Positions 804 to 58,206 of a DNA stretch of 64,000 bases are shown piece by piece. The notes beneath the pieces are model-generated. The model was not told the origin of the DNA. It worked only from the letters and a program-made list of their open reading frames with translations, and ran no database searches. The position numbers and the translations under genes were made by a program. This DNA comes from Candidatus Latescibacterota bacterium (GTDB taxonomy: Bacteria > Latescibacterota > UBA2968 > SICM01): NCBI GenBank assembly GCA_009694805.1, contig SICM01000004.1, forward strand, positions 635 to 64,634, read 5' to 3'. Positions within the stretch are counted from its first letter, which is position 1; every line of letters starts with the position of its first letter.

Positions 804-896
804 CAGGCAATAGGCAGAAGGCAGTAGGCAATAGTTCCCCACCCTTCCGTTTTTGTTTTTTAGGTTTTACTATTGCCTGTTGCCTGTTGCCCTATT
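804..896. repeat. heptamer array pair: (AGGCAnn)x4 and inverted (TTGCCTG)x3
   Basis: aggcaat aggcaga aggcagt aggcaat ... ctattgcct gttgcct gttgcc, in the rpsI-rplM spacer. Confidence 0.85.
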
Positions 897-1326
897 TTCC
901 CACCTTCAGCGGCTCCGGTTGCTGGGCCGTATGCAGGTGGTCAGGACCGGCGTAAACCTTGAGCTTCTTGCTCATCTGGCGTCCCAGCCGATTGTGCGGG
1001 AGCATGCCGCACACGGCGCGTTCGATGATCCGTTCGGGCTTCTCACCCATGAGCTTGTTATAGCCGATCTTCCTGAGCCCCCCCGGATAGCCGGTGTACC
1101 GGAAATACTCCTTCTGCTCCGCCTTCCGGCCGGTCATCATGACCTTCTCTGCGTTCACGACAACCACGTAATCGCCCGTGTCCACGTGGGGGGTGTAGAT
1201 CGGCTTGTGCTTCCCCCTCAGGATCTTCGCGATCTCGGAGGCGAATCGTCCGAGGACCTTTCCCTCGGCGTCAGCCACATACCATTTGCGAGTGAACGCG
1301 CCCTTTTTGGCGTTGTAAGTTCCCAT
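892..1326 (-). CDS. rplM: 50S ribosomal protein L13
   Basis: ORF 892..1374. L13-like sequence starts at [27 protein letters not shown] (ATG 1326). Sits in the conserved rplM-rpsI order. Confidence 0.93.
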
Positions 1327-1405
1327 CAGACAACCTTTCCTACAAGGGTGGAGAACACGCCCCAAAACGGACATGGGCGGATATGCTGTTAAGTAGAAGC
1401 TTTAA

Positions 1406-1434
1406 AAGCTACTATTTACATCTGTTTTTGTCAA
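1406..1434 (-). promoter_or_regulatory. possible sigma70-like promoter for rplM-rpsI
   Basis: Minus-sense TTGACA, 17-nt spacer, TAGCTT (weak -10). Confidence 0.3.
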
Positions 1435-1471
1435 GGGGGAAATGAGATACACAGGGCATGTCGTTTTAACA

Positions 1472-1500
1472 TTGACATTCCCCCCACCGTCCGGTATCTT
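1472..1500 (+). promoter_or_regulatory. sigma70-like promoter for the Ldh_2 gene
   Basis: TTGACA, 17-nt spacer, TATCTT, in an AT-rich divergent region. Confidence 0.45.
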
Positions 1501-1556
1501 TGCCCCCCGCTTTGAAACCCCCGAAAGGTCCAAACCCTGAGAGGAAAGGGCATCGC

Positions 1557-2594
1557 GTGCCGACGTTTTCTGCCGACACCCTCCGGGACGTCGCCGTCCG
1601 CATCCTGAAGGCCGCAGGCGTCCCCGCCGGAGAGGCCACGATCGTGGCCGATCTCCTGGTCGATTCCAACCTGGCCGGGCACGACTCGCACGGAATCCTC
1701 CGGCTCCGCCAGTACCTCGGTATGATCCGGGACGGAGCGATCTTCCCCGGCGCACCGTCGAAGATCGTCCAGGAGACCCCGGCCACGGCGGTCCTGGACG
1801 GGGGATGGGGATTCGGGCAGGTCGTGGCGCGCAGAGCCGTGGAACTGTCCATCCAGAAGGCGCGGACCTCCGCCGTCGGAGCCGTGGCCGTGCGCTGCTG
1901 CAACCACATCGGACGCCTCGGGGCCTATGCGGCCCTCCCCTGCGAGGCAGGAATGGTGGGCCTGCTGTTGGTCAACGGCCACGGGGGAGACCAGGGGGTC
2001 GCTCCCTACGGGGGCCTCGCCCGTCGGCTCGGCACCAACCCCTTCGCAGCGGCCGTCCCGTCCGCGGGCGGACCCCCTGTGGTCATGGACATCACGACCA
2101 GCATCGTGGCCGGTGGCAAGATAAGGCTTGCCCGCGCGCGCGGGGAATCGGTCCCGGAGGGGTGTCTCATCGACGCCCACGGCAACCCTGCCACCGACCC
2201 CAACGTCTACTACGACCCTCCCAGGGGGGCCCTCCTCCCCTTCGGCGGACACAAAGGGTATGGCCTGAGCGTGATGATCGACCTCCTGGCCGGGACCCTG
2301 TCCGGGGCAGGGGCCAGCGCCCCCGGGTCTCCCAGACCGGGCAATGCCTTTCTCGCGATCGCCATCGACATTGAGCGGTTCATCCCGGTCGACACGTTCC
2401 GGGAGGAGGTCCGGCAGTTCATCGCCTACCTCAAGACCTCCCCAAAAGCCCCCGGTGTGGCCGAGATCCTGGCCCCTGGCGAAAGGGCTTTTCGGGAACG
2501 GGAGCGGAGGCTCCGGGAGGGCATCGAGGTCGAGGACCGGACGTGGGAACAGGTCCTCGACGCCGCCAGGAGTCTGGGTGTAGAATTACCCTAA
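1557..2594 (+). CDS. Ldh_2 family (malate/L-lactate/ureidoglycolate-type) dehydrogenase
   Basis: ORF 1500..2594 contains the HDSHGILRL motif region typical of the Ldh_2 family. GTG at 1557 follows GAGAGGAAAGGG, and the ORF-track start would overlap the predicted -10. Confidence 0.8.
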   Translation: MPTFSADTLRDVAVRILKAAGVPAGEATIVADLLVDSNLAGHDSHGILRLRQYLGMIRDGAIFPGAPSKIVQETPATAVLDGGWGFGQVVARRAVELSIQKARTSAVGAVAVRCCNHIGRLGAYAALPCEAGMVGLLLVNGHGGDQGVAPYGGLARRLGTNPFAAAVPSAGGPPVVMDITTSIVAGGKIRLARARGESVPEGCLIDAHGNPATDPNVYYDPPRGALLPFGGHKGYGLSVMIDLLAGTLSGAGASAPGSPRPGNAFLAIAIDIERFIPVDTFREEVRQFIAYLKTSPKAPGVAEILAPGERAFRERERRLREGIEVEDRTWEQVLDAARSLGVELP

Positions 2595-2625
2595 AGTAGG
2601 GGCGACCCGGCGGGTCGCCCCTACT
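2595..2625 (+). terminator. GTAGGGGCG...CGCCCCTAC hairpin after the Ldh_2 gene
   Basis: AGTAGGGGCGACC-CGGC-GGGTCGCCCCTACT, near-perfect stem directly after the stop. No U-tract follows. Confidence 0.45.
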
Positions 2626-2636
2626 CTGTGATAAAT

Positions 2637-3815
2637 ATGTCCGAAGACAACACCATCGTCGAACTCAAGCGCCGGGCGCGTCGGACGACGGTCCTCGACC
2701 TGATCCGCCGACGCGGGCCTGTCTCCAGGGGGGACATCGCCCGGCTGACCCATCTCCAGATCCCCACCATCACCCACCTCATCACCGACCTGATGGCCGA
2801 GGGGCTGGTGAAGGAAGACGGGTATTGCGAGACGGGACGTGGTCGGCGTTCGGCCCGCCTCGCCATCGACCCGGCGTCCGCCTTCGTCGGAGGCCTGTGC
2901 GCGGGACGCGGGGGGGTCCTCGCCTCGGTCGTCAGTCTGGACGGAAACCCTTCCCGGCCGGTGCGCTCTGAAGGCGCCCTGGCGCCGGACGCCCTGGTCG
3001 AGGGACTGCATAAGGCCATCCTGGCGGCCACGGAGGGCGCGGGTCTGCCCCCGGAGCGCCTCCGGGGGATCGGCATCGGCCTCGACGGTTACCCCCGGGC
3101 CTCCTTCCAGGAACTGGAAGAGACGCTGGGGGGGATGTTCGGCATCCCCGTGCGCGCCGAGAACGACGTGGAGGCCGCAGCCCTGGGCGAGGGCTGGTTT
3201 TCAGGAGACCGCAGCGTCCTGTTCGTTCAGGTGGGCGACTGCATCCGGTCGGGCCTGGTTGTCGAGGGCTGCATGCATCGGGGGGCCGTGGCCGGGCTGG
3301 GGCTGGGGCAGGTGGTCGTCGAAGAGAGGGAAGGGGGACGATTCGGGTCGGGAGGAGGCGGCACGCTTCAGGAAGTGGCCTCCGGACAGGCGATCTGCGA
3401 GGCCGTGCGGCGCGAGCTGGGCCGGGGCATCCGGTCCAAACTGCCCGACCTGGTGGGGGGGGATCTGTCGAACCTGACGCCGGGGATCGTGAGCGACGCG
3501 GCCGGGGCCGGGGACATCCTGGCGTTCAACCTCCTCGACCAGACCGGCCGCTGGATCGGCGCCGCGCTCGCCTGGGCCGTCTGCATCCTCAACCCGGCCC
3601 GCCTGCTCCTCTCCGGAGACCTCGTCCGGGACGGTGGGCCGCTCACCGACGCCATCCGGCGCGAGATCTCCCTCAAGGTCCCTCCCGAATGGGAGGTCGA
3701 GCGCCGTCTCGCCTTCGCGCCCTCGGACGAGGAGACATTCGTGCGGGGGGCTGCGGCCCTGGCCGTCCGCCACCTCTTCGGGCAGGACGACGCGGAGGCC
3801 ACGATCTGCGTGTAG
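2637..3815 (+). CDS. ROK family transcriptional regulator (NagC/XylR-like)
   Basis: N-terminal winged-helix segment (VLDLIRRRGPVSRGDIARLTHLQIPTITHLITDLMAEGLV) followed by a sugar-kinase-like ROK body. Start could be 2628 (GTG) or 2637 (ATG). Confidence 0.8.
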   Translation: MSEDNTIVELKRRARRTTVLDLIRRRGPVSRGDIARLTHLQIPTITHLITDLMAEGLVKEDGYCETGRGRRSARLAIDPASAFVGGLCAGRGGVLASVVSLDGNPSRPVRSEGALAPDALVEGLHKAILAATEGAGLPPERLRGIGIGLDGYPRASFQELEETLGGMFGIPVRAENDVEAAALGEGWFSGDRSVLFVQVGDCIRSGLVVEGCMHRGAVAGLGLGQVVVEEREGGRFGSGGGGTLQEVASGQAICEAVRRELGRGIRSKLPDLVGGDLSNLTPGIVSDAAGAGDILAFNLLDQTGRWIGAALAWAVCILNPARLLLSGDLVRDGGPLTDAIRREISLKVPPEWEVERRLAFAPSDEETFVRGAAALAVRHLFGQDDAEATICV

Positions 3816-3874
3816 GGGAGACCCCACCCCCGGCCCGCCACCCACCCTGTCGCTCCCGTGGGTCGCGACCCCTG

Positions 3875-4113
3875 CCCTCCTACAAGAGGGGAGGGGGGAA
3901 GTGCAATAAACCAGTGCGACGTACAGATCAAAAGCAGGCGCGCCGCCAGAAACCCCCACCACCGGAGTTCAGCAGAAGCAACCCACACGCCGGGGGCACA
4001 TCATGGCGTGCGACAACTGAATGTTAAGGTTGCGGCGCGCCAAAGCCCCCCGCGGCGCATGAGCGGGCGTGCTTCTTTGGCCCCACCTTTCTTGCACGAG
4101 CAAGAAAGGTGGG
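3875..4113 (+). repeat. composite structured element, copy A (core 3936-4113)
   Basis: CCCTCC-TACAAGA-GGGGAGGG hairpin, GTACAGATCAAAAGC, GGCGCGCCGC...GCGGCGCGCC closing stem, loop-GGCGCATGA hairpin, terminal CCACCTTTCTTGC-ACGA-GCAAGAAAGGTGG hairpin. Confidence 0.85.
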
Positions 4114-4134
4114 AATGCCGCTAAGAGAATCGTC

Positions 4135-4156
4135 GGGCAGGCACAGGGGCCTGCCC
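4135..4156 (-). terminator. GGGCAGGC / GCCTGCCC hairpin downstream of the D-aminoacylase gene
   Basis: 8-bp GC stem with a 6-nt loop, flanked by CCCCTAC like the GTAGGGGC family. No U-tract. Confidence 0.35.
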
Positions 4157-4183
4157 CTACCTTTATAGTAAATCGCCTGGGTC

Positions 4184-5752
4184 TTAGCCTTTAAATCTCA
4201 GCGCCCTTCCCGGCAACTTCTCCCCCAGCCCCTCCACCGCCTTCCCCTCCTCCAGAACGACCACCCCGTTCACGATCACATAGCGCATCCCCTCCGAGAG
4301 CTGATGGGGCTCCCCGTAGGTGGCCCGGTCCCGCACGCCTTCTGCGTCGAAGACCACCAGGTCCGCGAAGGCCCCCTCCCGGATCACCCCCCGATCCTTC
4401 AGCCCGAACCGTTCCGAGGGGTATCCGCTCAACTTCCGCACCGCCTCCTCCAGCGAAAACAGCTTTCGATCCCGCACCAGCGGCCCGATCAGCCGCGAGG
4501 CAGAGCCGTACATGCGCGGGTGGACCGCCCCCCCCTCAAAATAGATCCCATCCGTCCCCATCATGTATTTCGGATGCTGGAGAAAAGCATCCACCAGCCG
4601 ATCCTCTCCCTGATGGAACACCAGGAGCACCGCCAGGCCCTCCTCGATCAGCAGATCACACAGGGCGTCCGCCGTCCCCTTGCCCGTCTGCGCCACATAT
4701 TCCTGTAGCTTCATCCCCTGGTACCGGGTGTTGTCCTTGCTCCCGACCCAGGCGATGTGGATCTGATCGAGCTTCAGCGCATAACTATCCAGAAGCGCCC
4801 CGAACCGCTCCCGGACGACCGGGTCCGTCAACCTGGCCGCCGCGTTCAACGGCCCCCCCTCCCACACCTCGTAGGGCAGGAGGTAGCTGAGCATCGTGGA
4901 GCCGGGCAGGTAGGGGTAGACATCGAACGAGAAGTCCACCTCCTTGCTGGCCACGTTGTCCACGTAAGAGAGTATCTCATCCACCTCTCCGGCCGAGGTC
5001 CCTTTCAGATGGGAGATGTGTACCGGCACCCCGGCCCTGCGTCCGATCTCCACGGCCTCCTTCAGCGCCCCCATCGTCCCTTTTTTATATCGCATGTGGG
5101 TGACGTAGAGCCCCCCCCACGGGGCCATCGCCTCGCAGACCTCGACGATCTCATCCGTGGTCGAAAAACACTCAAACGGGTAGTCGATGCCCGTGGAGAC
5201 CCCCACCGCCCCCTCCTCCATCCCCTTCCGAACCTCCTGCCGCATCTGGTTCACCTGCACGTCGTCCGGGACCGCCCGCCCCCAGCCGCAGGCCAGCGTG
5301 CGCACGTTGGCGTAGGGGATGTGCGGGATCGTATTCTGGACGTTCCGGCGGTCCAGCAACGCCATGTAGTCGGAGATGCTGCGCCAGCCCGTGTAGTCCT
5401 GGAACTGGAGCCCGTTCAGCGACCGGAGGTAATACAGCCAGTGAGGCGCGGTGGTGGGCGTCACGGGCGCGTAGGAGATCCCGTCCACCATGAGCGCCTC
5501 CGTCGTGAACCCCTGGCTCGTCTTGGACAGCAGGTGAGGGATCTTGAGCACCCAGCCGTCCGAGTGGTTGTGGACGTCCACGAAGCCCGGCGCGACGACC
5601 AGCCCGGCGGCGTCGATGACGCGATGCCCACCCGTCTCCCCAGACCCACCTGTCCGGACGATCCGGTCCCCCTTCACCGCCACATCCCCCTTCCGGCGCG
5701 GGCCCCCGGTCCCGTCGATCACCGTACCGTTGCGAATGATCAGATCGTACAA
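4184..5752 (-). CDS. D-aminoacylase / N-acyl-D-amino-acid deacylase family amidohydrolase
   Basis: 522 aa, MYDLIIRNGTVIDGTG...VVAPGFVDVHNHSD metal-binding motif. TTG start preceded by AGGAG. Confidence 0.85.
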   Translation of the reverse strand: MYDLIIRNGTVIDGTGGPRRKGDVAVKGDRIVRTGGSGETGGHRVIDAAGLVVAPGFVDVHNHSDGWVLKIPHLLSKTSQGFTTEALMVDGISYAPVTPTTAPHWLYYLRSLNGLQFQDYTGWRSISDYMALLDRRNVQNTIPHIPYANVRTLACGWGRAVPDDVQVNQMRQEVRKGMEEGAVGVSTGIDYPFECFSTTDEIVEVCEAMAPWGGLYVTHMRYKKGTMGALKEAVEIGRRAGVPVHISHLKGTSAGEVDEILSYVDNVASKEVDFSFDVYPYLPGSTMLSYLLPYEVWEGGPLNAAARLTDPVVRERFGALLDSYALKLDQIHIAWVGSKDNTRYQGMKLQEYVAQTGKGTADALCDLLIEEGLAVLLVFHQGEDRLVDAFLQHPKYMMGTDGIYFEGGAVHPRMYGSASRLIGPLVRDRKLFSLEEAVRKLSGYPSERFGLKDRGVIREGAFADLVVFDAEGVRDRATYGEPHQLSEGMRYVIVNGVVVLEEGKAVEGLGEKLPGRALRFKG

Positions 5753-5761
5753 AAGGATCTC

Positions 5762-6739
5762 CTATGAGAGGACCCGGCACTCCGGGTCCGTGGCCATGGA
5801 CGGCGCGGGCGAATGGACGTGGTCCATCGGGGGCGTGATGAGATAGTGGTAATACAGGATGCACGGCTTCTGTTCAAACGGGAAGATCGCCCGGAACCGC
5901 CCGTCCGGCCCGGACTCATAACGAACGGACCCCGCATCCGACCAGGCCCCCACCACCGCCACGTCCACGGTGGATGTCCAGTCCGTCACCACGGCCCAGG
6001 TCGTGGACTTCCCATCCCCCCGCTGACGCGCCCCGAACGCCGTGGACAGGGGCGCGGCCGGGAGGTTGAAGTCGCTCTCCACGATCACCGAGGCGATCTG
6101 CGCCACATCCCCCGACACGACCTCGTGCTCGGCCAGGATCCAGGACACCCGCGAAAAACAGGTGATCCGCGTGACGAACCCGAACCCGCCGGGATAGACC
6201 CCCTCCACACGCAGCCGTCCCGCGCGCGGACCCCGCGTCTCCGTCTCGATCCGCGCCTCCCCCTCCGGCAGAAGCTCCTGCCCATCCTTCAGGACAAGGA
6301 CAATCCCCCGTGACCCGGGCCGCAGAAACAGCTTCTCGCCGAAGATCATCTGATCCACGAGATTGAACCCTTTCCGCCGGACCTGGTAGATCACCGGCCC
6401 CTGCTGCACCTCCACGGGGTCCCCCCCGTCTCGGACCTCGATCGGACTCAACTGTTTGGCCTCAGGCGTCGCGCCCTCCCCGTACTCGAACTTGAAGACC
6501 CTCTCCCCCCTGGCCGGAATGCGGGCCGAGAAGGTCACGTCCGCCGTCCGGACGCTCCCGTCCTCCCACGCCCGTACGGCGTCCACCTGAATGGCCTGCT
6601 CCTGTCCTTCGGGGTCGAACAGCCGGGCCGGGCCTCCGGGATGAAACGCCCCCCGGTCAAGATCCACGGTGAAGGTACACGGGACGGCCTTTCGCTCGAA
6701 GCCATCTCGTTCTGTGATGCGAACGCTCTTTGTCTTCAT
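5762..6739 (-). CDS. hypothetical protein (beta-rich, no recognisable family, no signal peptide seen)
   Basis: 325-aa ORF with GGGAGGA SD, packed between two operon genes. I recognise no motif. Confidence 0.6.
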   Translation of the reverse strand: MKTKSVRITERDGFERKAVPCTFTVDLDRGAFHPGGPARLFDPEGQEQAIQVDAVRAWEDGSVRTADVTFSARIPARGERVFKFEYGEGATPEAKQLSPIEVRDGGDPVEVQQGPVIYQVRRKGFNLVDQMIFGEKLFLRPGSRGIVLVLKDGQELLPEGEARIETETRGPRAGRLRVEGVYPGGFGFVTRITCFSRVSWILAEHEVVSGDVAQIASVIVESDFNLPAAPLSTAFGARQRGDGKSTTWAVVTDWTSTVDVAVVGAWSDAGSVRYESGPDGRFRAIFPFEQKPCILYYHYLITPPMDHVHSPAPSMATDPECRVLS

Positions 6740-6756
6740 CGATCCTCCCCAAAAGC

Positions 6757-6870
6757 AGGTGCCAGGTGTCAGGTATCAGGTGTCAGGAAAGGCAAAGACA
6801 GGTGTCAGATATCAGGTTTCGGCAAAAACCGAGATCGTTTTTGTTCCCCCGAAACCCGACACCCGACCCC
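6757..6870. repeat. heptamer array pair: (CAGGTGn)x4-6 and inverted (CCCGACA)x2
   Basis: caggtgc caggtgt caggtat caggtgt cagg ... cccgaca cccgacc. Confidence 0.85.
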
Positions 6871-6900
6871 GCTGTTGTCTTTTTCCCATCCCTATTTTTT

Positions 6901-7899
6901 CTACTCGATCCTCAAAAACCCCCCTCCACGCTTCGCCGATTCCTGCGCCATCAGACACGCCCGGGACACTCCCAGCACGTCCGACGTGGAGATGAAATGC
7001 TCCTCCCCGCGCGCGAGCGCCGCGACCATGTCCTCTACGAACGCATCGTGCTGCGCCGGCGGCAGCGTCGGCTCGTACGCCCCCTTGCCGTCCGCCACGA
7101 TCAGCAGATGATCCCCGGCGTAGGCCCGCAGATGCGCCGACCCCTTCGTCCCCATCAGAATGAACCGCGTATCCCCGAAAGACGGCGAGTCCTGGGGCGT
7201 CAGCCAGTCCGCCGTCAAGAACGCCAGGGACCCGTTGCTCAACTGAAACGACGCCTGCACGTGATCCGCCAGCCTCGGCGCCTCCACGAACTTCTTGCAC
7301 GTCTCCAGCGCGTGGACCCCCACGCACTCGGCCCCCGTCAGCCACCGCACCTGGTCCACCCCGTGGCAGGCCACGTCGTGGAACGTCCCCGTGTAGGCGT
7401 TCGGGTCGAAATACCAGGCCGGCGCCGTCTTCCGGGTGATCTTGTGCGGGTGCGTGGAGATCAGGCTCACGACCTCCCCCAGCTCCCCCGCCAGGATCGC
7501 CTCCCGCAGCACGATGAACGGTGGATGACTCCGGGACGTGAACCACATCGAGAGCTTGACGCCGCTCCGCTGGACCGCCGACCGGATGCGTCCCCAGTCG
7601 TCCAGCGTTCGGCAGAGTGGCTTGTCCAGCAGCGCGTGCGCGCCCGCAGCCGCGCACGCCTCCACGAACGCAGCCTTCTCCGGGTGCGTGATCCCCTCCA
7701 GCACCAGCTCCGGCCGGGCCTTCTCCAGCATCTCTTCCAGCGTTCGGTAGCGGGGGACCTTCCGGTCCTTCGTGTAGCGTTCGTAGAGCGCGTCGTCCGC
7801 CTCCACGACCCCCACCATCTCCCCGTTCGCCGCCTTCGCCGCCGACCGGAACATCCCCCCGATGTGCCCGTAGTGCAGCCCCATCACACCGATACGCAT
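6901..7899 (-). CDS. Gfo/Idh/MocA family oxidoreductase
   Basis: MRIGVMGLHYGHIGG... Rossmann N-terminus at ATG 7899 with GGAGAGGAG SD. The ORF-track N-terminal extension runs through a repeat array. Confidence 0.85.
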   Translation of the reverse strand: MRIGVMGLHYGHIGGMFRSAAKAANGEMVGVVEADDALYERYTKDRKVPRYRTLEEMLEKARPELVLEGITHPEKAAFVEACAAAGAHALLDKPLCRTLDDWGRIRSAVQRSGVKLSMWFTSRSHPPFIVLREAILAGELGEVVSLISTHPHKITRKTAPAWYFDPNAYTGTFHDVACHGVDQVRWLTGAECVGVHALETCKKFVEAPRLADHVQASFQLSNGSLAFLTADWLTPQDSPSFGDTRFILMGTKGSAHLRAYAGDHLLIVADGKGAYEPTLPPAQHDAFVEDMVAALARGEEHFISTSDVLGVSRACLMAQESAKRGGGFLRIE

Positions 7900-7918
7900 G
7901 TCACGCTCCTCTCCAAAG

Positions 7919-8001
7919 CATGCAAATGGCAAATGTGAAGCGTATCTCGTATCTCGTAGGAATCTTTTTCGCTTCACGCTTCACGCTTCACGCTTCACGC
8001 C
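7919..8001. repeat. heptamer arrays GCAAATG x2, TATCTCG x2, CGCTTCA x4
   Basis: Direct reading. The last CGCTTCA units encode the C-terminus and TGA stop of the FAD oxidoreductase. Confidence 0.85.
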
Positions 8002-9136
8002 TGATCGCAAACCTCACCCGCACCGCCTCGAACTCCGGCACCTCCGTCCGCCCCTTCAACGCCAACTCGGCCAGGACCCGGCCCGTCAGCGGCCCGAACT
8101 TGAACCCGTGTCCTGAACAGCAGGAGCCGATGACAACGCGCGAGTGGTCGGGGTGAAGGTCCATGATGAAATCCTTCGTCCCGTTCATCGTGTAGAGACA
8201 CGTCTCCCCGCCCAGAAACCGTTCGATCCGGGGGACGAACTGCCACTCCAGGAACGCCCGCAGGCGCTCGACCTCCTCATCGTCCACCGCCTCCACCCCC
8301 TCCTGGGGGTCGTCCCCCGCACCGACCGTCAGATCCCGGGCGACCTTGATCCCCTCCCGGCCAAATTCGGGCAGGCCATAATAGACCCTGTCCCCCCCCT
8401 CTCCCAGATAGCCCCAGACCGGAAACCGCCCCACGCAAAAATCCTCCGGCGGCCCGGCAGGCTTGAAATAGCAGACCCTCTGCCGGATGACCTTCAGGCG
8501 ACCCTTCAAGAAAGGGAGCAGGTCCGGAACCCACGCCCCCGCCGTGACCACCAGCCGCTCCGTCTCCATCGCCCCCCGCTCCGTCTCCACCCGGACCGGA
8601 TCGCGCGTCGGGTCGATGCCCGTCACCCGGCATTCCTCGTGTATCTCGACGCCATTCCGGCGACAGAGGCCGGTCAGAGCGGAGATCGTCTCGGCGGCGG
8701 CCACCAGCCCGGCCGTGCGGTCGTGGAGCGCACCCACTGCGTTCTCGAACCGGAATTGCGGAAAACGCCGCCGCGCCTCCGCCACGTCGAGCGGCTCCAC
8801 ATCCACCCCCATCTGCGCCACGGCGCGGGCGTAGGCAGGGTAGCTTCCCCCGGGCGGCCCGAAGAAAAACCCGGGGGTGCGGTGGATCAGCCGCTGGCCC
8901 GCGTCGCGCTCCAGCCTGGGCCACTCCTGGCCGTGTACGACCTGCATGAGACGGACGTAATCAGGGTCAAAATACACGCTCCGCGTGATCCGGGAGTGCC
9001 CGTGCGAGCTGCCCCGGTCGTGCCCGAGCCGGAACTGCTCAACCAGCCCCAGCCGCCGACAGCCGAGCCGGTGCAGGTGGTAGAGGGCCGATAGACCGTT
9101 GATCCCCCCCCCGATCACCAGCGCCTCGTAGACCAT
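7988..9136 (-). CDS. FAD-dependent oxidoreductase (sarcosine / N-methyltryptophan oxidase-like, DAO family)
   Basis: MVYEALVIGGGINGLSALYHL dinucleotide-binding motif at ATG 9136. The upstream ORF extension is repeat-derived. Confidence 0.8.
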   Translation of the reverse strand: MVYEALVIGGGINGLSALYHLHRLGCRRLGLVEQFRLGHDRGSSHGHSRITRSVYFDPDYVRLMQVVHGQEWPRLERDAGQRLIHRTPGFFFGPPGGSYPAYARAVAQMGVDVEPLDVAEARRRFPQFRFENAVGALHDRTAGLVAAAETISALTGLCRRNGVEIHEECRVTGIDPTRDPVRVETERGAMETERLVVTAGAWVPDLLPFLKGRLKVIRQRVCYFKPAGPPEDFCVGRFPVWGYLGEGGDRVYYGLPEFGREGIKVARDLTVGAGDDPQEGVEAVDDEEVERLRAFLEWQFVPRIERFLGGETCLYTMNGTKDFIMDLHPDHSRVVIGSCCSGHGFKFGPLTGRVLAELALKGRTEVPEFEAVRVRFAIRREA

Positions 9137-9155
9137 GCTTTTTTCCTTTAAATCA

Positions 9156-9247
9156 GACCTCACCCACCCCCTTCCCCCTCCCTCTCCGCTTGCGGAGAGG
9201 GAGGGGAGATAAGAGCCTCTCCCCTTAAACATGGGGAGAGTGAGGTC
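9156..9247. repeat. nested GC-rich hairpin element (GACCTCACCC ... GAGTGAGGTC family)
   Basis: Outer GACCTCAC/GTGAGGTC stem encloses CCCTCCCTCTCCGC/GCGGAGAGGGAGGG and CTCTCCCC/GGGGAGAG hairpins. Confidence 0.85.
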
Positions 9248-9269
9248 GCTTCACGCTTCACGCTTCACG
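9247..9269. repeat. heptamer array CGCTTCA x3
   Basis: cgcttca cgcttca cgcttca. Contains the esterase stop codon. Confidence 0.85.
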
Positions 9270-10313
9270 ACTTTTCAGCCATCTGTCGAACCAGTCCAGC
9301 GACTTCCGCCCGCTGAACTGGTGATCGTCCGGGAAACGGTCCGGCACGATCCGGTCCCCTGCGCCCGCCGCCCGGTAGATCCGCGCCAGGTGGTGATAAG
9401 CCTTCTGCACGTCCTCAATCACGAAGCATGTATCCTTCTCTCCCATCTCCACGCACAGCGGTCGGGGGGCGATCAGCCCGGCCACGTCCGGGATGTCTCC
9501 AATCGTCAGCAGTCCCGGCATGTACTGCGCCCCGCAGGTGTTGGCCCGCCCCCGCATCCCCAGGGCATCGCCCCGGACCGTGCTGACGTAGCCGCTGATG
9601 CAGGCGCACCCGATCCGTCCGTCCAGCGCCGACAGAAAGGTCGTCATCGTCCCCCCGAACGACACCCCCACGCACCCGAGTCGATCCGGGTCCACCTCCG
9701 GTCTGGACTGAAGATAGTCGAGCGTCCGCATCGCATCGCAGATCTGCAACGTCAACAGGTGGTAGCCCCGGTAGCCCTCGGCCATGTAATTCACATTGCA
9801 CGGATCGCGCCCCTGCCGCACCCACGCCGCCGGGCTCTTCCGCTCCCCGAATCCCCGCCAGTCCGGGGCGATCACGACGTAGCCTCTCCGCACCAGTTGC
9901 ACGCCGAGCTGGTGCTGGTAGTCCTCGTGCGGCTGCTCCTCCATATTCAGCCCCACCAGCGGATTCTTTCCCAGCCCGTGTCCGTGCGCCGCCAGAATGC
10001 CCGGCCTCCGATCTCCCTTTTTCAGCCCCTTCGGAGTCAGCACCCAGGCCGGCACGCTCGCGTAGCGCTCCGAGTCATAGACCACCTTCTCCCGCACATG
10101 GTCCCCCATATCCTCCCGCTTGAGCACCTCTGCCCGGAGCGGAACCTTCTCTGGCATCGGCCCCAGCAGCCTGGCCAGCCGCGACCGGAACGTGCGCCGC
10201 CAGGCCCGCCAGTCGTCCGTCGTCTTGCCGGCGAAAGACAGCGCCGGCCTCTCCCCCGCAATCCACGCGTGCACGGAGTCGTAGGAAGAAAAATATCGCT
10301 TTCGTTTGGACAT
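9258..10313 (-). CDS. alpha/beta hydrolase (acetyl-xylan-esterase / dienelactone-hydrolase-like)
   Basis: GVSFGG nucleophile elbow and AXE1-like N-terminal region. ATG 10313 lies 7 nt after GAGGAG. Confidence 0.75.
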   Translation of the reverse strand: MSKRKRYFSSYDSVHAWIAGERPALSFAGKTTDDWRAWRRTFRSRLARLLGPMPEKVPLRAEVLKREDMGDHVREKVVYDSERYASVPAWVLTPKGLKKGDRRPGILAAHGHGLGKNPLVGLNMEEQPHEDYQHQLGVQLVRRGYVVIAPDWRGFGERKSPAAWVRQGRDPCNVNYMAEGYRGYHLLTLQICDAMRTLDYLQSRPEVDPDRLGCVGVSFGGTMTTFLSALDGRIGCACISGYVSTVRGDALGMRGRANTCGAQYMPGLLTIGDIPDVAGLIAPRPLCVEMGEKDTCFVIEDVQKAYHHLARIYRAAGAGDRIVPDRFPDDHQFSGRKSLDWFDRWLKSREA

Positions 10314-10415
10314 GATGAGGCTCCTCTTGTTCACCGCAGGATCGTGAAATGATCAGCGGTTCGACTTCACTCAGATTTCCTTGGAGTCGTAGCTACAATT
10401 GTATATATTATTGTC

Positions 10416-10938: not shown

Positions 10939-10964
10939 CGAATAGACAGGGGACGTCCCGACTT

Positions 10965-44111: not shown

Positions 44112-44129
44112 CCCCCGACCCTTGATCTT

Positions 44130-48935: not shown

Positions 48936-48936
48936 C

Positions 48937-49006
48937 GTTTGCCGTCTGCCGCTTGCCGCCTGCCTTCTGCCTTCTGTCTTTTGCCGTCTGCCGTCTGCCG
49001 TCTCAC
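48937..49006. repeat. heptamer array (nnCTGCC) x10
   Basis: gtttgcc gtctgcc gcttgcc gcctgcc ttctgcc ttctgtc ttttgcc gtctgcc gtctgcc gtctcac. Confidence 0.88.
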
Positions 49007-49737
49007 GTCCCCTTCCGCCCCACGCAGAACACCGAACTCCCGAACGGAAACGAGGACCGGGCCACCCACCGGTTCTCCACGGCAAGGAGTCGCCGGAGCA
49101 GCGCGTTCAACAGGCCGGGCGTCTTCTGAACGTCCGAGACCTCTCCGGCCCTCCGGGAGCGCAGGAGGCGAACCAGGCAGATCAGCGGGAACAGCAGGGC
49201 GTTCCAGTACGTGGCCTTCAGCACGGAGAACCCGGCCTCCTGGAGCAACGCGACGACCTCCGGCCTTCGATACCGGTGCCGGGTGTGGACCGCCCGGTCG
49301 TGCGAACTCCTCATGAACTCAAACGCCGGGAGGTTGAGCGCCAGCACCCCGCCCGGCTTGAGGACGCGAAAGAACTCCCGCAACGCCCGTCGGTCGTCCA
49401 CCCCCTCGATGTAGAGCACGTCCAGAGAGGTCACGGCATCGAATGCCCCGTCCCGGAACGGCAGGCCCTCCACGGAGGCCCGCGCCACCGGGAGCGGTTC
49501 AGCGCTCCGCAGATAGCGGATCGCGTCCGGAGAGAGGTCCACCCCGCAGGTCCTGAGCGTCTTCGAACGCCGACTCAAATACCGCAACAGCCCCCCGGTC
49601 CCGCACCCCGCATCCAGCACCCGCTCCCCGTCCGGACAGTACTGGCGAAGACTCCGTAACGTCAGCTCCCGCAGGCCGAGGAACCACCAGTGGGTGTCCT
49701 CCACCTCGGCCATGACCCTGTATTCACGGGGCTCCAT
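49003..49737 (-). CDS. class I SAM-dependent methyltransferase
   Basis: VLDAGCGTGGLLRYL motif I. Its stop lies inside a heptamer array. Confidence 0.8.
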   Translation of the reverse strand: MEPREYRVMAEVEDTHWWFLGLRELTLRSLRQYCPDGERVLDAGCGTGGLLRYLSRRSKTLRTCGVDLSPDAIRYLRSAEPLPVARASVEGLPFRDGAFDAVTSLDVLYIEGVDDRRALREFFRVLKPGGVLALNLPAFEFMRSSHDRAVHTRHRYRRPEVVALLQEAGFSVLKATYWNALLFPLICLVRLLRSRRAGEVSDVQKTPGLLNALLRRLLAVENRWVARSSFPFGSSVFCVGRKGT

Positions 49738-49751: not shown

Positions 49752-49816
49752 AGTCCAGAGTTCAGAGTCCAGAGTCATAGGCTTTGACCCTGGACCCCGG
49801 ACTCTGGACCCGTGAC
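49752..49816. repeat. heptamer array pair: (AGTCCAG)x3 and (GACyCyG)x4
   Basis: agtccag agttcag agtccag agtc ... gaccctg gaccccg gactctg gacccgt. Confidence 0.85.
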
Positions 49817-50916
49817 TAACGACCCATAGCTTTCCGGACCGCCGCGATCACCGTTCCGACCTCCTCGTCCGTCAGTTCCGGAAAGCTCGGCAGGCTCACG
49901 ATCTGCGGGGCCATCAGATCCGTCTGCTCCAGATACCGCGCCTGCCCCTGCGTCTCGGCGTAGGCCTCCTGCCGATGGATCGGCACCGGATAGTGGATCA
50001 CCGTCTGAACCCCCGAAGCGAGCAGGCGCTCCTGGAACCGGTCGCGCCCCGAAACCCGCACCACGTACAGATGATAGTTGTGCCACCGGCCCGAAGCCTC
50101 GACCGGGCAGACCACGTCCGTGTCCGAAAGCCCCTTCGTGTAGGCCGCCGCGATCTCCCGCCGCCGCGCGTTCCACCCGTCCAGATGGGACAGCTTGGCC
50201 AGCAGGACCGCGGCCTGCAACTCGTCCAGCCGGCTGTTGAATCCCTTGACCTTGTGGTAGTACCGGCGCTCCTGGCCGTAGTTCCGGAGCTGCTTCAGTC
50301 GCTCCGCCAGCCCGGCGTCGTTCGTGGTGACCAGCCCCCCGTCCCCGACGGCCCCCAGGTTCTTGCTCGGGTAGAAGCTGAAACACCCCGTATCCCCCAT
50401 CGTCCCCGCCTTCCGGCCCCGGTACGTGGCCCCGTGCGCCTGGGCGCAGTCTTCGACCACGCGAAGCCCCCGGCGTCGCGCGATCTCCAGGATCGGGTCC
50501 ATGTCCGCGCACTGTCCGTACAGGTGGACCGGCAGGATCGCCCTTGTCCGATCCGTGATCCGATCCTCGATCTTCCCGGGGTCCATCGTATAGGTCACGG
50601 GGTCCGCGTCCACCAGCGCGGGGCTCGCCCCCGAGGACGACACCGCCGACAGCGTGGGCACACAGGTGTTGGACACCGTGATCACCTCGTCCCCCGGCCC
50701 CACGCCGCAGGCCACCAGGCTCAGGTGGAGGGCGTCCACCCCTGACCCCACGCCCACGGCATACTTCGCCCCGCAATACTGCGCGAACGCCGTCTCAAAC
50801 TGCTCGACCTTCTCGCCCAGGACGTACCACCCCCGCGCCAGGACCTGGGCCACGGCCCCGTCGATCTCCGACTGCATCCCCCGGTACTGCCTGGCAAGAT
50901 CACCGAACGGTATCAT
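49816..50916 (-). CDS. DegT/DnrJ/EryC1/StrS family sugar aminotransferase
   Basis: MIPFGDLARQY..., SFYPSKNLGA PLP-lysine motif. ATGA overlap with the upstream gene. Confidence 0.9.
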   Translation of the reverse strand: MIPFGDLARQYRGMQSEIDGAVAQVLARGWYVLGEKVEQFETAFAQYCGAKYAVGVGSGVDALHLSLVACGVGPGDEVITVSNTCVPTLSAVSSSGASPALVDADPVTYTMDPGKIEDRITDRTRAILPVHLYGQCADMDPILEIARRRGLRVVEDCAQAHGATYRGRKAGTMGDTGCFSFYPSKNLGAVGDGGLVTTNDAGLAERLKQLRNYGQERRYYHKVKGFNSRLDELQAAVLLAKLSHLDGWNARRREIAAAYTKGLSDTDVVCPVEASGRWHNYHLYVVRVSGRDRFQERLLASGVQTVIHYPVPIHRQEAYAETQGQARYLEQTDLMAPQIVSLPSFPELTDEEVGTVIAAVRKAMGR

Positions 50917-51920: not shown

Positions 51921-51984
51921 GAATCATCCACTCCTGGCCACAACAAAACAAGAAAAGCACCACATCAAATGCGTAGAGATTTTA

Positions 51985-52015
51985 CTTGGCACGTGACACT
52001 TGACACTTGACACTC
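51985..52015. repeat. heptamer array (CTTGACA-like) x4
   Basis: cttggca cgtgaca cttgaca cttgaca, same word family as 16851-16930. Confidence 0.8.
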
Positions 52016-55453: not shown

Positions 55454-55531
55454 CATTTGCATTTTGCATTTTGCATTTTCTGCCTTCTGCCTTCTGCCTT
55501 CTTATCTGCGTCTATCTGCGTCTATCTGCGG
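55454..55531. repeat. modular array: (ATTTTGC)x3 + (TTCTGCC)x3 + 10-mer (TCTATCTGCG)x3
   Basis: Direct reading of the spacer between the 175-aa orphan and paralog 1. Confidence 0.9.
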
Positions 55532-55536
55532 ACCCG

Positions 55537-56730
55537 TTACGCCCGCCCATGCTGGGACTCCGCCGGCGCACGATACACCACCTTCAGATGCGGCGTCTCC
55601 AGCCGCCCGTGCCCCTGGAGGCGCGAGGTCAGGCAGCTCTCCAGCATCCCGCTGACGATCAGCGTCCGCTCCGCCGGAAACGGGGCCCTGCCGGTCTCAA
55701 TCATCTCCTCGATCTTGGCCACCAGACAGGCCGAGTAGGTCACATTGGGGATCGGCGTCAGGAAGAACTGCGTGGAGACCGGCGCGGGCGCTCCCTTGAG
55801 CCGCGCCGCGAAGCAGAAGTCCCTGACCGCGCCGTTGAGCATCAGCAGCGTGGCCTTCAGACCGTCATTATACTCGATGAAATAGGCCACCGGTTTCTCC
55901 ACCAGCTTCGGGAGTTCTCCCTGGCCCAGCAGGTCGTAGGTGCGCCCGTCCTCCACCGGGAGGCCGCACGGGCTGTCGCTCCGGGACAGCGCCGCCTCCA
56001 GAAGCGCCTTCGACCAGCGCCCCTCCTCCCCCGCCTTCCACACGGCCTCCCCCTCGATCATCTGCACAGCCCTCACCCCCGTCTCCCCACCCTTCCGCCG
56101 TTCTATCATACATTGCATGGCCTCCAGGGCGTGGTAGTCCATCGCATCTGACCCGCCCCCGCCCACCATCAGCGCGTCCTCGACCTCGCAGTCCAGGGGC
56201 AGCTCCAGGTCCGGCAACCGCCACGTCACCGGCAGGGACGACCCCGCCAGCACGGGAAACCGGAGACGCCGGGCGTCGTCCAGCATCTCCCTGGCCTTCT
56301 CGAAGCTGGTGGAGAGGTGCTTGTCGTTGTAGACCGGGACCCCTCTGCCGTCCGCTTCAAACACCTTGACGCACGCCTTGAAGAACGCGTGGCGCGGGTA
56401 GAGCTTCTGCCCCAACTCATTGGTCGGGTAATCCCCGTGCTCCCCGATGATCAGGACAGCATCCACGGCCAGCCGGTCGCCCCCGCAGCGCAGCGCCTCG
56501 GCGATCGTGGGGTACACGCGAAACCCGAACTCACGCGCCCGGTCCACGCTCTGGTCGCCTCCGGGTTTCTGGTCCACATACAGGGAGACGACCCGCATGT
56601 CGGGCCGCCGCCAGCGCCCCTCGTAGGGGTACCCGACCAGGAAGCGGTCCACGAAGTGCTGGGCGTGCGACAGGTAGCGGTAGACCGTGGCGACCACCGC
56701 GATGCGTTTGGGAGAGGAACCGGAAGTCAT
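55537..56730 (-). CDS. uncharacterised 397-aa protein, paralog 1 of a tandem pair
   Basis: AAGGAGAA SD. Collinear similarity to 56887..58080 along the full length. Confidence 0.65.
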   Translation of the reverse strand: MTSGSSPKRIAVVATVYRYLSHAQHFVDRFLVGYPYEGRWRRPDMRVVSLYVDQKPGGDQSVDRAREFGFRVYPTIAEALRCGGDRLAVDAVLIIGEHGDYPTNELGQKLYPRHAFFKACVKVFEADGRGVPVYNDKHLSTSFEKAREMLDDARRLRFPVLAGSSLPVTWRLPDLELPLDCEVEDALMVGGGGSDAMDYHALEAMQCMIERRKGGETGVRAVQMIEGEAVWKAGEEGRWSKALLEAALSRSDSPCGLPVEDGRTYDLLGQGELPKLVEKPVAYFIEYNDGLKATLLMLNGAVRDFCFAARLKGAPAPVSTQFFLTPIPNVTYSACLVAKIEEMIETGRAPFPAERTLIVSGMLESCLTSRLQGHGRLETPHLKVVYRAPAESQHGRA

Positions 56731-56756
56731 GCGGAAGGTTCTCCTTCGAATGCTGA

Positions 56757-56891
56757 ATGTCGAATGTCGAATGTCGAATCCCCCATTCGCACTTCGTCAT
56801 TCGTCCTTCGCACTTCTGGTGCGGATCACATCTTACAGGTTTTATCTGCGTTTATCTGCGCCCATCTGCGGATTACGCTTTACGCTTCACG
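56757..56891. repeat. modular array: (GAATGTC)x4 with inverted (CATTCGn) units + 10-mer (nnnATCTGCG)x3 + (TTACGCT)x2
   Basis: Direct reading of the spacer between the two 397-aa paralogs. Confidence 0.9.
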
Positions 56892-58080
56892 TCCTCCAGA
56901 ACGTCGATTCTTGAGTCGGCGGGTACGCGATGTCCAGGTGGGGCGTCTCCTGCCGTTTCTGCTCCTGATGCAGGCTCTCCACCCCGGCGGCCACCAGGCC
57001 CGTGGTCAGCAGCGTCCGCTCCACCGGATACGACGGCCTGCCGGTCAGGAACATCTGCTCGATGTGGTGGATCTGCGGGGAGAAGAAGTTGGCCAGCGTC
57101 GCGCGGTCCGGCGGCATCGGCAGGTACATCTGCGTGGACAGAGGACTTTCGCGGTCCTCCAGGTGCGCGGCGAAGTTGAAGTCCTGCACCAGGCCGTTCA
57201 GCAGGACCATCGTGCACCGCAGCCCGTCCAGATGCTCGTAGTGATACGCGATCGGGTCCTTGACGATCTCTTTCATCTCATCCCGCGTCGGGAAGACGTG
57301 GTTGAACCCCTTCCGCGACGGCGTGAGGGTGTGGCTGCGGCAGAGCGCGGCCTCGAACAGCTCGCGCGACCAGACCCCCTCGTGATGCGCCTCCCAGAAT
57401 TTGTCACCCCGATAGGCCTGGAGCCACCGCACCCCCTTTTCGCCCCCCTCCCGGCGCTCGGCCATGCACTGGATCGTCTCCAGCGCGTGGAAGTCGTAGC
57501 TGTCCACGCCGCCATAGCCCACGCACAGCGCCTCCCGGACGCGCGCGCCCAGGGGCATGTCCAGAGCGGGCGTGCGCCAGGTGACCGGCAGGGATGAACC
57601 GGCCATGAACGCGAACCCCATCTCCCGCGCCGTGTCGTACATCTCCCGCGCCCATGCCCACTTCCAGGACAGATGCTTGTCATTGAACAGGGGCGCGGTC
57701 CGGCCGCTCATCCTGTAGACCGCCGCGACCTGCTGGAACAGCTCATAGCGCGGGTAGAGGCGCTGCTCCTTTTCGGTCTTCCGGTAGTCCCCGTGCTCCC
57801 CGATCAGAAGCACCCCGTCCACGGCCAGGTCCCGTCCGCCCAGCGTCAGGGCATCCGCGACCGTCGGATAAACCTTCATGGACGGAAAGCGGGCGGCCCG
57901 GTCCGCGCTCAGATCGCCCTCCTTGACCTGGTCCACATAGAGCGAGACCAGGTCCATCTCCGGACGGTGGTGCCGGCCATTCCAGCCGTAGCCCTCTAAG
58001 AACCGGTCGATGAAGTGCTGCGCGTGGGCGTACTTCTGGACGATCGTGACGATGGCCGCGATCTTGGGGCGTCTGGTCAT
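56887..58080 (-). CDS. uncharacterised 397-aa protein, paralog 2 of a tandem pair
   Basis: GGCAGGAG SD. Shares HAQHF-DRFL-GY, VSLYVDQ, IGEHGDY, NDKHLS, AGSSLPVTWR, HALE--QCM-ERR-GGE-GVR blocks with paralog 1. Confidence 0.65.
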   Translation of the reverse strand: MTRRPKIAAIVTIVQKYAHAQHFIDRFLEGYGWNGRHHRPEMDLVSLYVDQVKEGDLSADRAARFPSMKVYPTVADALTLGGRDLAVDGVLLIGEHGDYRKTEKEQRLYPRYELFQQVAAVYRMSGRTAPLFNDKHLSWKWAWAREMYDTAREMGFAFMAGSSLPVTWRTPALDMPLGARVREALCVGYGGVDSYDFHALETIQCMAERREGGEKGVRWLQAYRGDKFWEAHHEGVWSRELFEAALCRSHTLTPSRKGFNHVFPTRDEMKEIVKDPIAYHYEHLDGLRCTMVLLNGLVQDFNFAAHLEDRESPLSTQMYLPMPPDRATLANFFSPQIHHIEQMFLTGRPSYPVERTLLTTGLVAAGVESLHQEQKRQETPHLDIAYPPTQESTFWRT

Positions 58081-58104
58081 GGGCGACTCCTGCCTCTCAG
58101 TTTC

Positions 58105-58206
58105 TCATTTTGCACTTTGCATTTTGCATTTTCTGCCTTCTACCTTCCGTCTTTCGCCTTCCTATCTGCGTTCATCTGCGCCCATCTGCGGATCACGCCT
58201 TACGCC
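58105..58206. repeat. modular array: (yTTTGCA)x4 + degenerate (TTCTGCC)x4 + 10-mer (nnnATCTGCG)x3 + CACGCCTTACGCC
   Basis: Same module order as 55454-55531. Overlaps the 3' end of the GT2 gene. Confidence 0.9.

Follow-up and report, generated by a model that had tools for sequence, protein, structure and literature searches.

Heptanucleotide arrays in the gene junctions of the window

The window analyzed here is a 64,000-nt stretch of contig SICM01000004.1, assembled from a Candidatus Latescibacterota bacterium, with a GC content of 66% and the majority of its genes on the - strand. The gene map, drawn from Pfam scans and from gene calls on public contigs, consists of sugar and oxidoreductase operons, the rplM-rpsI pair, and a long glycosyltransferase/polysaccharide cluster. 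No tRNA genes were found in the window, nor did any part of it match Rfam at the gathering thresholds. Between these genes lie tandem arrays of 7-nt units, the subject of this study, which are carried by 16 spacers adding up to about 1.7 kb. An earlier note on the same DNA, made from the sequence alone, had reported heptamer arrays in at least 14 spacers, and Tandem Repeats Finder (TRF) detects a period-7 array in every one of these, with sequences matching the description; two more arrays, at 43014-43032 and 44088-44121, were absent from its list. Copy numbers of the period-7 arrays range from 2.4 to 9.7, and TRF also identifies three arrays with a 10-nt unit, at 55503, 56841 and 58164.

Using a periodicity scan with 20 dinucleotide-preserving shuffles for comparison, we found 15 period-7 runs scoring at least 12 in the window against a mean of 0.05 in the shuffles, which confirms that the arrays are more frequent than composition-matched sequence would produce. 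The same scan of the window gives no runs at periods 4-6, 8 and 11-13, and four at period 14, because 14 is a harmonic of 7. The resulting density of 0.23 period-7 runs per kb is approximately 20-fold higher than the 0.011 per kb observed in 80 unrelated bacterial loci (1.16 Mb), where period 7 is again the commonest non-triplet period, clustered in a few genomes. The array regions are 99.4-100% identical in contigs assembled independently from other runs or samples (Logan L001, L094-L098; ENA L089, L090; NCBI L091; including GCA_945861745.1). Reproduced in this way, the arrays are genuine, and the assembly artefact that the earlier note had named as a possible refutation does not apply.

Each of the 16 arrays occupies the gap that separates a stop codon from the next ribosome-binding site (RBS), a convergent gap (25542), or the final few codons of a gene, so that the restriction to intergenic spacers described earlier holds once gene ends are included. 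None of the divergent promoter gaps and none of the 5' coding regions in the window carries an array. The arrays end 5-60 nt upstream of start codons and are followed by strong GGAGG sites, a position that they take because they occupy the sole free space between the stop codon and the next RBS. The DAO, hydrolase and 397-amino-acid (397-aa) genes take their stop codons from the word TGAAGCG, and two other genes theirs from CGCAGATNNN 10-mers; for annotation, this means that gene 3' ends can be array-encoded. As TGAAGCG ends three genes, and three TGAAGCG units stop all three reading frames, stop codon content was considered as the driver of word choice. We rejected it as a general rule: among 73 metagenome arrays with sufficient flank, long open reading frames adjoin the TGA-sense side in 21% of cases and the other side in 26%.

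About half of the array-bearing spacers are paired, as the earlier note had noticed, with a direct array and, beyond a loop of 11-37 nt, an imperfect inverted array together forming a hairpin at 804, 6757, 16851, 25542, 37577 and 49752 and in part of 56757; the remaining spacers are direct only. When array and inverted array are folded together, the first six of these give z-scores of -4 to -6.7. In the rplM-rpsI spacer (804-896), a GGCAGNA/CAATAGG array, a T-rich loop and an inverted TTGCCTG array fold at -41.7 kcal/mol (z -5.4). Between a GFO oxidoreductase gene and a 325-aa gene (6756-6871), CAGGTGT x4.6 precedes a second CAGGTGT-like arm, a loop and an inverted CCCGACA arm, with a fold of -62.9 kcal/mol on the sense strand (z -5.4), and this insert is flanked by the 9-nt direct repeat GAGGATCGA. 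The His_Phos-PepX spacer (16851-16930) combines AGTGCCA x4.4, a loop and an inverted ACGTGGC x4.3 array (z -4.0 and -4.7), and its helix has one mismatch per 7 nt, at an arm-specific variant position. The convergent gap between DUF6785 and Meth_synt_2 (25542-25615) holds AAAATGC x3.7, a loop and inverted TTTGCAC x3.4 (z -4.0 on both strands). The ThuA-GFO3 spacer (37577-37654) is made up of CAGGGGT x3.6, AAAGCAAAGA, a loop and an inverted CCCCGAC array (-57.7 kcal/mol, z -5.0), and the DegT-MT spacer (49752-49817) of AGTCCAG x3.6, a loop and inverted GACCCTG x3.7 (-47.4 kcal/mol, z -5.0). In the spacer between two 397-aa paralogues (56746-56891), TCGAATG x4.9 with an inverted TTCGCAC arm is joined by two copies of the 10-mer TTTATCTGCG and by TTACGCT x2.7, which includes the upstream stop codon; this spacer contains repeat family D11. 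U-tracts are present in four cases: CTTTTG comes after the hairpins at 804 and 6757, six Ts follow the one at 49752 on its sense (-) strand, and eight Ts follow the one at 25542 on the - strand, the other hairpins being without such a tract. A rho-independent terminator would combine a GC-rich stem and a short loop with a U-tract directly 3' of the stem.

Units within one arm are at least as alike as units across arms, and the two arms often differ at one fixed position of every unit, which leaves one mismatch per 7 nt of helix. This combination is the pattern expected if arms homogenize internally. G-U wobble asymmetry was considered as a sign of the strand that folds. Of five systematic differences between arms, four are A/G and would produce G-U pairs on the - strand irrespective of gene direction, a pattern that fits a window-wide strand compositional skew as well as it fits selection at the RNA level.

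Direct arrays without an inverted partner, single or abutting, are found at 48936, 51984, 55456 and 58105. The MT-GT4 spacer (48936-49009) carries CGTCTGC/TTCTGCC x9.7 and the GT2-epimerase spacer (51984-52014) ACTTGAC x4.4. Three direct arrays abut at 55456-55531 (TTTGCAT x3.4, TTCTGCC x3.6 and the 10-mer TATCTGCGTC x2.8), the last of which takes in the stop codon of the upstream 397-aa gene. The spacer upstream of a 397-aa gene, together with the 3' end of the GT2 gene (58105-58206), holds CATTTTG x3.9, a degenerate TTCTGCC array, the 10-mer ATCTGCGCCC x2.7 and ACGCCTT units, with repeat families D11 and D13. The DAO-GFO spacer (7919-8001) consists of TATCTCG x2.6 and CGCTTCA x4.4, with the TGA stop codon of DAO inside the array, and the GFO2-NTP_transferase spacer (19493-19560) of TCGTATC x3.7 followed by degenerate CGCTTCA units, two words that align with those at 7919 and stand in the same order. 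At 9247-9269, the alpha/beta hydrolase gene ends, stop codon included, within CGCTTCA x3.3, which encodes its last codons; the corresponding junction in the related contig L087 measures 4 nt. TCACTCG x2.7 (43014-43032) lies 5 nt upstream of the Glycos_transf_4 start, and AACCCCT/GACCCCC x4.7 (44088-44121) overlaps the end of the same gene, ending 8 nt before the MacB start.

Some arrays also contain promoter-like matches. The array at 16851-16930 includes TTGGCA-17-TATGAT, and on the - strand at 16844-16872 and 51979-52006 the words TTGGCA and GTGTCA form sigma-70-like -35 hexamers located 16-17 nt from TATGAT and TAAAAT. There, a change of a single unit would bring a different repeat into register with the -10 element.

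Shared words and turnover between strains and relatives

The arrays of the window use the same words repeatedly. Exact-class word pairs between unlinked spacers number 6 against 0.38 expected, and pairs at no more than one mismatch 20 against 6.5, neither value being reached in any of 2000 shuffles, so that the recurrence of words at unlinked loci noted previously is far beyond chance. The lead-in AAAGCAGG, described as common to several arrays, is also enriched, with five matches, all on the + strand, against 0.92 expected; this part of the observation stands, but two of the five matches belong to a separate non-heptameric repeat of about 200 nt. Sharing also extends to ordered multi-word modules. 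The spacers at 6757 and 37577 have in common the AAAGCAGG lead-in, a CAGGNGT array, an AAAG(G)CAAAGA motif and a CCCGAC arm, and those at 7919 and 19496 have TGAAGCG and then TACGAGA in the same order. The spacers at 55.4, 56.8 and 58.1 kb have modules of 43-77 nt that are 81-93% identical (55456-55531, for example, is 81% identical to 58116-58192 over 77 nt), with flanking paralogues only 47% identical as proteins. One contig from run SRR8561391 (L097, positions 1-240) places the 3' module of window 56844-56897, GTGAAGCGTAAAGCGTAATCCGCAGATGG, after a different upstream gene, whose stop codon is in the array, and then runs into the 397-aa gene; this arrangement reflects a structural variant or else mis-joining at a module present elsewhere in the genome.

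Polymorphism between strains could be followed over window positions 1-11339 (11.3 kb), which are 99.5-99.6% identical to the 17-kb contig L089, obtained from a different sample. Between the two there are just four indel events. In L089, the DAO-GFO array (7919) is short by one GCGTGAA unit, one arm of the 6757 hairpin is longer by one TCGGGCT unit, and the whole hydrolase-DAO spacer is swapped for a different heptamer hairpin with GTGAAAC/GGCAGAC and GCCGTTT arrays, the fourth event being a 6-nt duplication elsewhere. Each of the two exact 7-nt changes is confined to one arm. Arrays are therefore indel hot spots that change by whole units, one arm at a time. The earlier note had pointed to strain comparison as a way to reveal unit-number variation and had denied that the arrays show ordinary microsatellite behavior; two arrays that differ by exactly one 7-nt unit between 99.5%-identical strains behave just as long simple sequence repeats (SSRs) do. 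Further strain contigs, retrieved through MT, His_Phos, ThuA and a 175-aa protein, were identical to the window wherever they came with DNA. Contigs identical to the window also occur in two runs, SRR8561390 and SRR8561391, and a metagenome study of Lake Baikal cites both. For assembly, a practical consequence of the arrays is that short-read contigs of these genomes break at them.

Relatives at greater distance keep the genes and change the junctions. In L087, whose DAO protein is 74% identical, gene order from GH116 to rpsI is retained, with junctions of 4-17 nt where the window holds 88-161 nt of arrays, and the whole 21 kb contains just two weak heptamer arrays. Its rplM-rpsI junction has the stop codon, 2 nt and the RBS, with no insert. 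The same junction carries (CAAGAGA)x2 in L085 and L086, (GAGGGCA)x2 and (GTCTAC-type)x2 in L084, and TGAAAAT and AGACGTC arrays in the more distant relatives L082 and L083, while that of the window holds a full hairpin. The insert invariably follows the stop codon and precedes a conserved AAGGAGGTGAAG RBS, and the words are different every time. L083, a 5.46-Mb contig, also has a perfect (ACGAATC)x19.4 array at 16829-16964, which a 37-nt tandem repeat (x3.1, 16162-16274) adjoins. Array presence is thus a property of the clade, with neither the words nor the presence at a given junction being conserved. The array-free junctions of L087 at the same gene pairs, and the differing or missing words at rplM-rpsI, speak against the systematic spacer design 5' of RBSs that the earlier note had proposed, and spacer length is an unreliable guide to operon structure in these genomes. 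The clade provides a favorable natural series, in which the rplM-rpsI junction ranges from empty through two units and two arrays to a full hairpin, and near-identical strains are one unit apart; array birth, turnover and effect on operon expression are therefore directly testable.

The nearest named relative of the host was identified from the DUF6785 protein, which is 89% identical to its homologue in Candidatus Handelsmanbacteria RIFCSPLOWO2_12_FULL_64_10 (Handelsmaniibacteriota). Neither L13 nor DAO has a close named relative among the homologues listed, and those listed for L13 are 55-70% identical and come from many phyla. With phylum placement based on one protein, the host, an uncultured lake bacterium, is probably related to Candidatus Handelsmanbacteria and probably comes from Lake Baikal. 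None of the papers searched links heptamer repeats to Handelsmanbacteria.

Beyond the window and its relatives, at least 120 metagenome contigs contain (TGAAGCG)x3, their GC contents running from 31 to 70%. Among the 120 listed, 12 have an inverted partner nearby and 46 have other heptamer arrays, and the TGAAGCG-seeded contigs contain 142 different words. CGAGATA-type words are 5-10 fold enriched within 200 nt of TGAAGCG arrays in unrelated metagenome contigs. A composite of (CGTGAAG)n, a loop, (ACGAGAT)2 and ACGCTTCACG is present in about 10-24 of the 120 listed contigs (41-68% GC), and its two window copies (7919, 19493) align with those in L111, L159 and L161. Two scrambled words with the composition of TGAAGCG have 35 and 83 matches in viral contigs, outnumbering TGAAGCG with 7 and CGAGATA with 5, and we rejected a small vocabulary universal across bacteria on these counts. 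Octamers made of the scrambled words plus one base have 2 and 7 matches in the same contigs, heptamer arrays being 12-17 times commoner. Taken together, the scrambled-word and octamer counts indicate that the preference for heptamers is general and that the vocabulary is large, not universal; the octamer deficit agrees with the published heptamer bias and slippage proposal described below. Words near TGAAGCG arrays in L099-L218 and in the window (7919-8001, 19493-19560) share a CGT anchor, as in CGTGAAG, CGTGAAA, CGTGAAT, CGTGAGA and CGTATCT, the complement of the last being AGATACG. These sequences suggest a degenerate family CGT+NNNN more than a set of independent words.

Origin of the arrays and relation to known repeats

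On balance, the arrays are probably heptanucleotide SSRs, long SSRs (LSSRs) of the kind represented by the short tandemly repeated repetitive (STRR) sequences of cyanobacteria and by GGGAATC in Xanthomonas, here in a Handelsmanbacteria-related bacterium. They have the properties by which such repeats are recognized: head-to-tail 7-nt units beyond compositional expectation, a preference for non-coding DNA (16 of 16 arrays in spacers or over terminal codons), and unit-number polymorphism between close strains (the two exact 7-nt indels against L089). The pattern resembles rapid turnover by slippage where the space between stop codon and RBS tolerates it, not a conserved design. Replication slippage with a 7-nt preference would create the arrays and homogenize them. 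Multi-word modules would be copied between spacers through recombination or a small mobile hairpin element, which would yield the re-used vocabulary of the genome, and the arrays would persist because the space between stop codon and RBS tolerates them. Where the array is paired, a hairpin of 20-35 bp would lie between cistrons of the polycistronic transcript, probably acting as a 3' stabilizer or a leaky terminator and uncoupling translation of the adjacent genes. We take this to be a side effect, one that selection may occasionally use, and not the reason why arrays exist. The U-tracts behind a subset of the hairpins are what suggests that these may serve as leaky terminators or 3' stabilizers, like intercistronic stem-loops in other bacteria (PMC4423207, PMC8219983).

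Several observations weigh against this account. Pure slippage does not explain why words and ordered multi-word modules are re-used at unlinked spacers, or why the GTGAAGC plus GAGATAC module appears in unrelated metagenomes, and slippage also leaves unexplained how an inverted array arises beside a direct one. The RNA-level role of the hairpins, though probable, is one that we infer from the sequence: the sense fold is more stable than the antisense fold in only six of eight co-directional cases, which is not significant, and a consensus terminator scan of the window showed no enrichment and did not detect the array hairpins, because their loops exceed the loop limit of the scan.

The earlier note could not place the arrays in a named repeat family, yet they correspond to heptanucleotide repeats described before (Mrázek 2007), and likewise to cyanobacterial STRRs, Xanthomonas GGGAATC and the paired sites of Geobacter. 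Heptanucleotide tandem repeats are over-represented in the intergenic DNA of scattered bacteria, with slippage suggested as the cause (Mrázek, Guo and Shah 2007, as summarized in PMC4679880 and PMC4692102). The arrays of the window are like these LSSRs in having tandem runs of 7-nt units that exceed the length expected by chance, in their intergenic location, in their sporadic phylogenetic spread, in having the heptamer as the dominant non-triplet unit, and in pointing to polymerase slippage as the proposed cause. They are unlike them in a density of about 0.23 arrays per kb with many word classes at once, and in coming from a candidate phylum not surveyed in that work as summarized in those two papers. 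Xanthomonas genomes carry approximately 186 GGGAATC arrays each, of which 70-75 form convergent inverted pairs (Rehm et al. 2015, PMC4692102), and array lengths vary between species with positions mostly kept (PMC4692102). GGGAATC and the GGGGA(T/C)T of Nostoc (PMC4692102) resemble our arrays in being intergenic, in a high-GC genome, 2-26 units long and often arranged as convergent inverted stem-loop pairs. Those genomes have one dominant G-rich word with G-quadruplex potential, whereas G-tracts in the window are limited to the CAGGGGT/CCCCGAC words, most words are unable to form a quadruplex, and the word itself changes between relatives.

The cyanobacterial STRR1-3 words are CCCCAGT, TTGGTCA and CAACAGT, and STRR is defined for heterocystous cyanobacteria (Calothrix/Anabaena/Nostoc). 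As in STRR, several heptamer words are each tandemly amplified and dispersed intergenically, including inside operons; both the words and the phylum of the window differ, which places its arrays outside STRR proper, a heptamer family also covered in PMC4692102. In marine Beggiatoaceae, TAACTGA direct repeats lie upstream of start codons (MacGregor 2015, PMC4679880). These too are arrays of two to six heptamer copies a few nt before start codons, including those of ribosomal-protein operons, and the word is found in distant phyla; in contrast, the arrays of the window precede strong GGAGG sites. Geobacter metallireducens has paired sites of three to five tandem 7-9 nt units, in opposite-strand pairs at dozens of loci (PMC2700814). 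Although they share tandem unit families of this size in opposite-strand pairs with our arrays, the Geobacter sites are read as binding sites of global regulators and some are at a fixed distance from an insertion sequence (IS), and no IS element was seen in the window. None of the Xanthomonas, cyanobacterial, Beggiatoaceae and Geobacter repeats has an established function (PMC4692102, PMC4679880, PMC2700814).

Other repeat classes fit less well. CRISPR arrays, with repeats of 24-48 nt, unique spacers of similar length and usually cas genes, were rightly excluded in the earlier note: the 7- and 10-nt units abut directly, and Pfam scans found no Cas domains. Mycobacterial interspersed repetitive units (MIRU) are tandem units of 40-100 bp in operon junctions with overlapping stop and start codons. 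They differ from our arrays in unit size (7 nt here) and are similar in operon-junction location and in stop codons within the array. Repetitive extragenic palindromes (REP) and bacterial interspersed mosaic elements (BIME) are stable intercistronic hairpins. The paired arrays are like these, and like the intercistronic stem-loops in operons that undergo selective processing and stabilization of their RNA, stem-loops whose function has been shown experimentally (PMC4423207, PMC8219983), in being a stable hairpin between cistrons of one operon, the role being inferred for paired arrays; REP/BIME and stabilization stem-loops are not composed of tandem short units.

The main rival to slippage-driven turnover is a mobile hairpin element. 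The hairpin-type spacers would then be copies of small, dispersed elements with heptad arms, similar to REP or to MITEs (miniature transposable elements with inverted repeats), spread by transposition or by a REP-associated transposase, with slippage remodeling them only afterwards. We regard this as unlikely, although a good deal is consistent with it: ordered multi-word modules are common to unlinked spacers (6757/37577; 7919/19496), the 77-nt and 43-nt modules are 81-93% identical next to paralogues that are 47% identical as proteins, the 9-nt GAGGATCGA direct repeat at the 6757 insert resembles a target-site duplication, a whole spacer is swapped between 99.5%-identical strains, and the GTGAAGC/GAGATAC module is found in metagenome contigs of 41-68% GC. 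MITEs are recognized by terminal inverted repeats, target-site duplications and all-or-none presence. The window provides one such 9-nt flanking repeat and one spacer swap, with no duplication at any other element, no conserved terminal inverted repeats besides the arms, and unit-wise changes as well. Most arrays are direct and unpaired, and neither a transposase nor a Y1/RAYT domain was found by Pfam among the approximately 60 window proteins scanned; for REP or REP doublets (REPIN), which are imperfect palindromes of 20-40 nt in hundreds of dispersed copies, the search for the cognate RAYT (Y1) transposase covered the window proteins. Words that differ between close relatives at the same site fit in-place turnover better than insertion.

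It is rather improbable that some of the hairpins are members of a heptad-armed element family whose sequence is conserved between unrelated bacteria; the example would be the composite shared with metagenome contigs. If true, either a horizontally mobile mini-element would be seeding arrays or hosts would share a factor recognizing CGT-anchored heptads, and frequent arrays at the same junction in this clade would reflect an active array-generating mechanism, not passive slippage.

Two functional readings are less likely than the mobile element. Binding of word-specific regulators, as proposed for Beggiatoaceae TAACTGA and for the Geobacter paired sites, is quite improbable: these precedents, the re-use of words at many operons, and arrays that stop 5-60 nt upstream of start codons are in its favor, but 64 kb contain at least 15 word classes, orthologous junctions hold other words or none, copy number varies between strains, arrays occur just as readily between convergent genes (25542), and neither cited proposal has been experimentally tested. 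Equally hard to credit, and ranked lowest of the biological explanations, are contingency loci, in which unit-number changes would switch or grade surface-polysaccharide genes as in the SSR phase variation of pathogens. Eight of the 16 arrays are in the glycosyltransferase/exopolysaccharide (EPS) cluster (48.9-58.2 kb), unit-number polymorphism exists, and several arrays overlap gene 3' ends so that a one-unit change alters the C-terminus. Arrays are nevertheless found equally in housekeeping and catabolic operons (rplM-rpsI, sugar oxidoreductases), both observed polymorphisms are outside the EPS cluster, and recovered contigs of that cluster are identical to the window. Phase-variable SSRs are located in 5' coding regions or promoter spacers; our arrays are 3' of stop codons and 5' of RBSs, and no array occupies a 5' coding region or separates the -35 from the -10 element of a recognized promoter. 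Finally, assembly artefacts from collapsed or chimeric low-complexity reads, to which short-read contigs terminating within arrays and the different upstream gene joined to one array in L097 might point, are refuted by the agreement of at least five independent assemblies from different runs and pipelines, which match base for base or by clean 7-nt differences, and by the same phenomenon in related genomes in contigs of 5.5-5.8 Mb.

The density of the arrays is striking and the kind of repeat is already known; the value of the window is in the comparative series and in the unexplained cross-lineage module. Heptamer tandem repeats have been remarked upon in several genome papers, and here array birth and turnover can be traced through that series.

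Other repeats and features of the window

The non-heptameric repeat that accounts for two of the AAAGCAGG matches is a second dispersed element of approximately 170-230 nt. Its four copies (3908-4115, 22357-22585, 36669-36876 and 41875-42081) are in the same orientation and in the longest intergenic gaps. Each is predicted to have a long-range stem, GGCGCGCCG...CGGCGCGCC, around approximately 120 nt, followed by two hairpins, the last of which is near-perfect (CCCACTTTTCTTGC-ACGA-GCAAGAAAAGTGGG). Compensatory changes are found at eight predicted pairs, and the element has no Rfam match. It could be a small RNA, a leader or a MITE.

G/C-rich palindromes, CTCTCCCC-N8-GGGGAGAG and CCCCTCCCTCTCC-GCAAGC-GGAGAGGGAGGGG, recur in spacers and beside the element of about 200 nt, at 3870-3900, 9139-9240 and 22310-22350 in the window and at 4990-5060 in L087; in place of the copy at 9139-9240, L089 has a heptamer hairpin. 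In the convergent gap between MacB and SDR (45395-45470), the palindrome ATTTTGCG-N6-CGCAAAATTCAA is present twice in tandem, approximately 50 nt apart; an operator pair is one possible reading, a further small repeat family another.

Between the hydrolase and GH116 genes, a BrnT/BrnA toxin-antitoxin pair is encoded at 10370-10940 on the + strand and is also called in L089. The corresponding interval of L087 has a HigB-like toxin/helix-turn-helix pair and a histidine kinase in its place.

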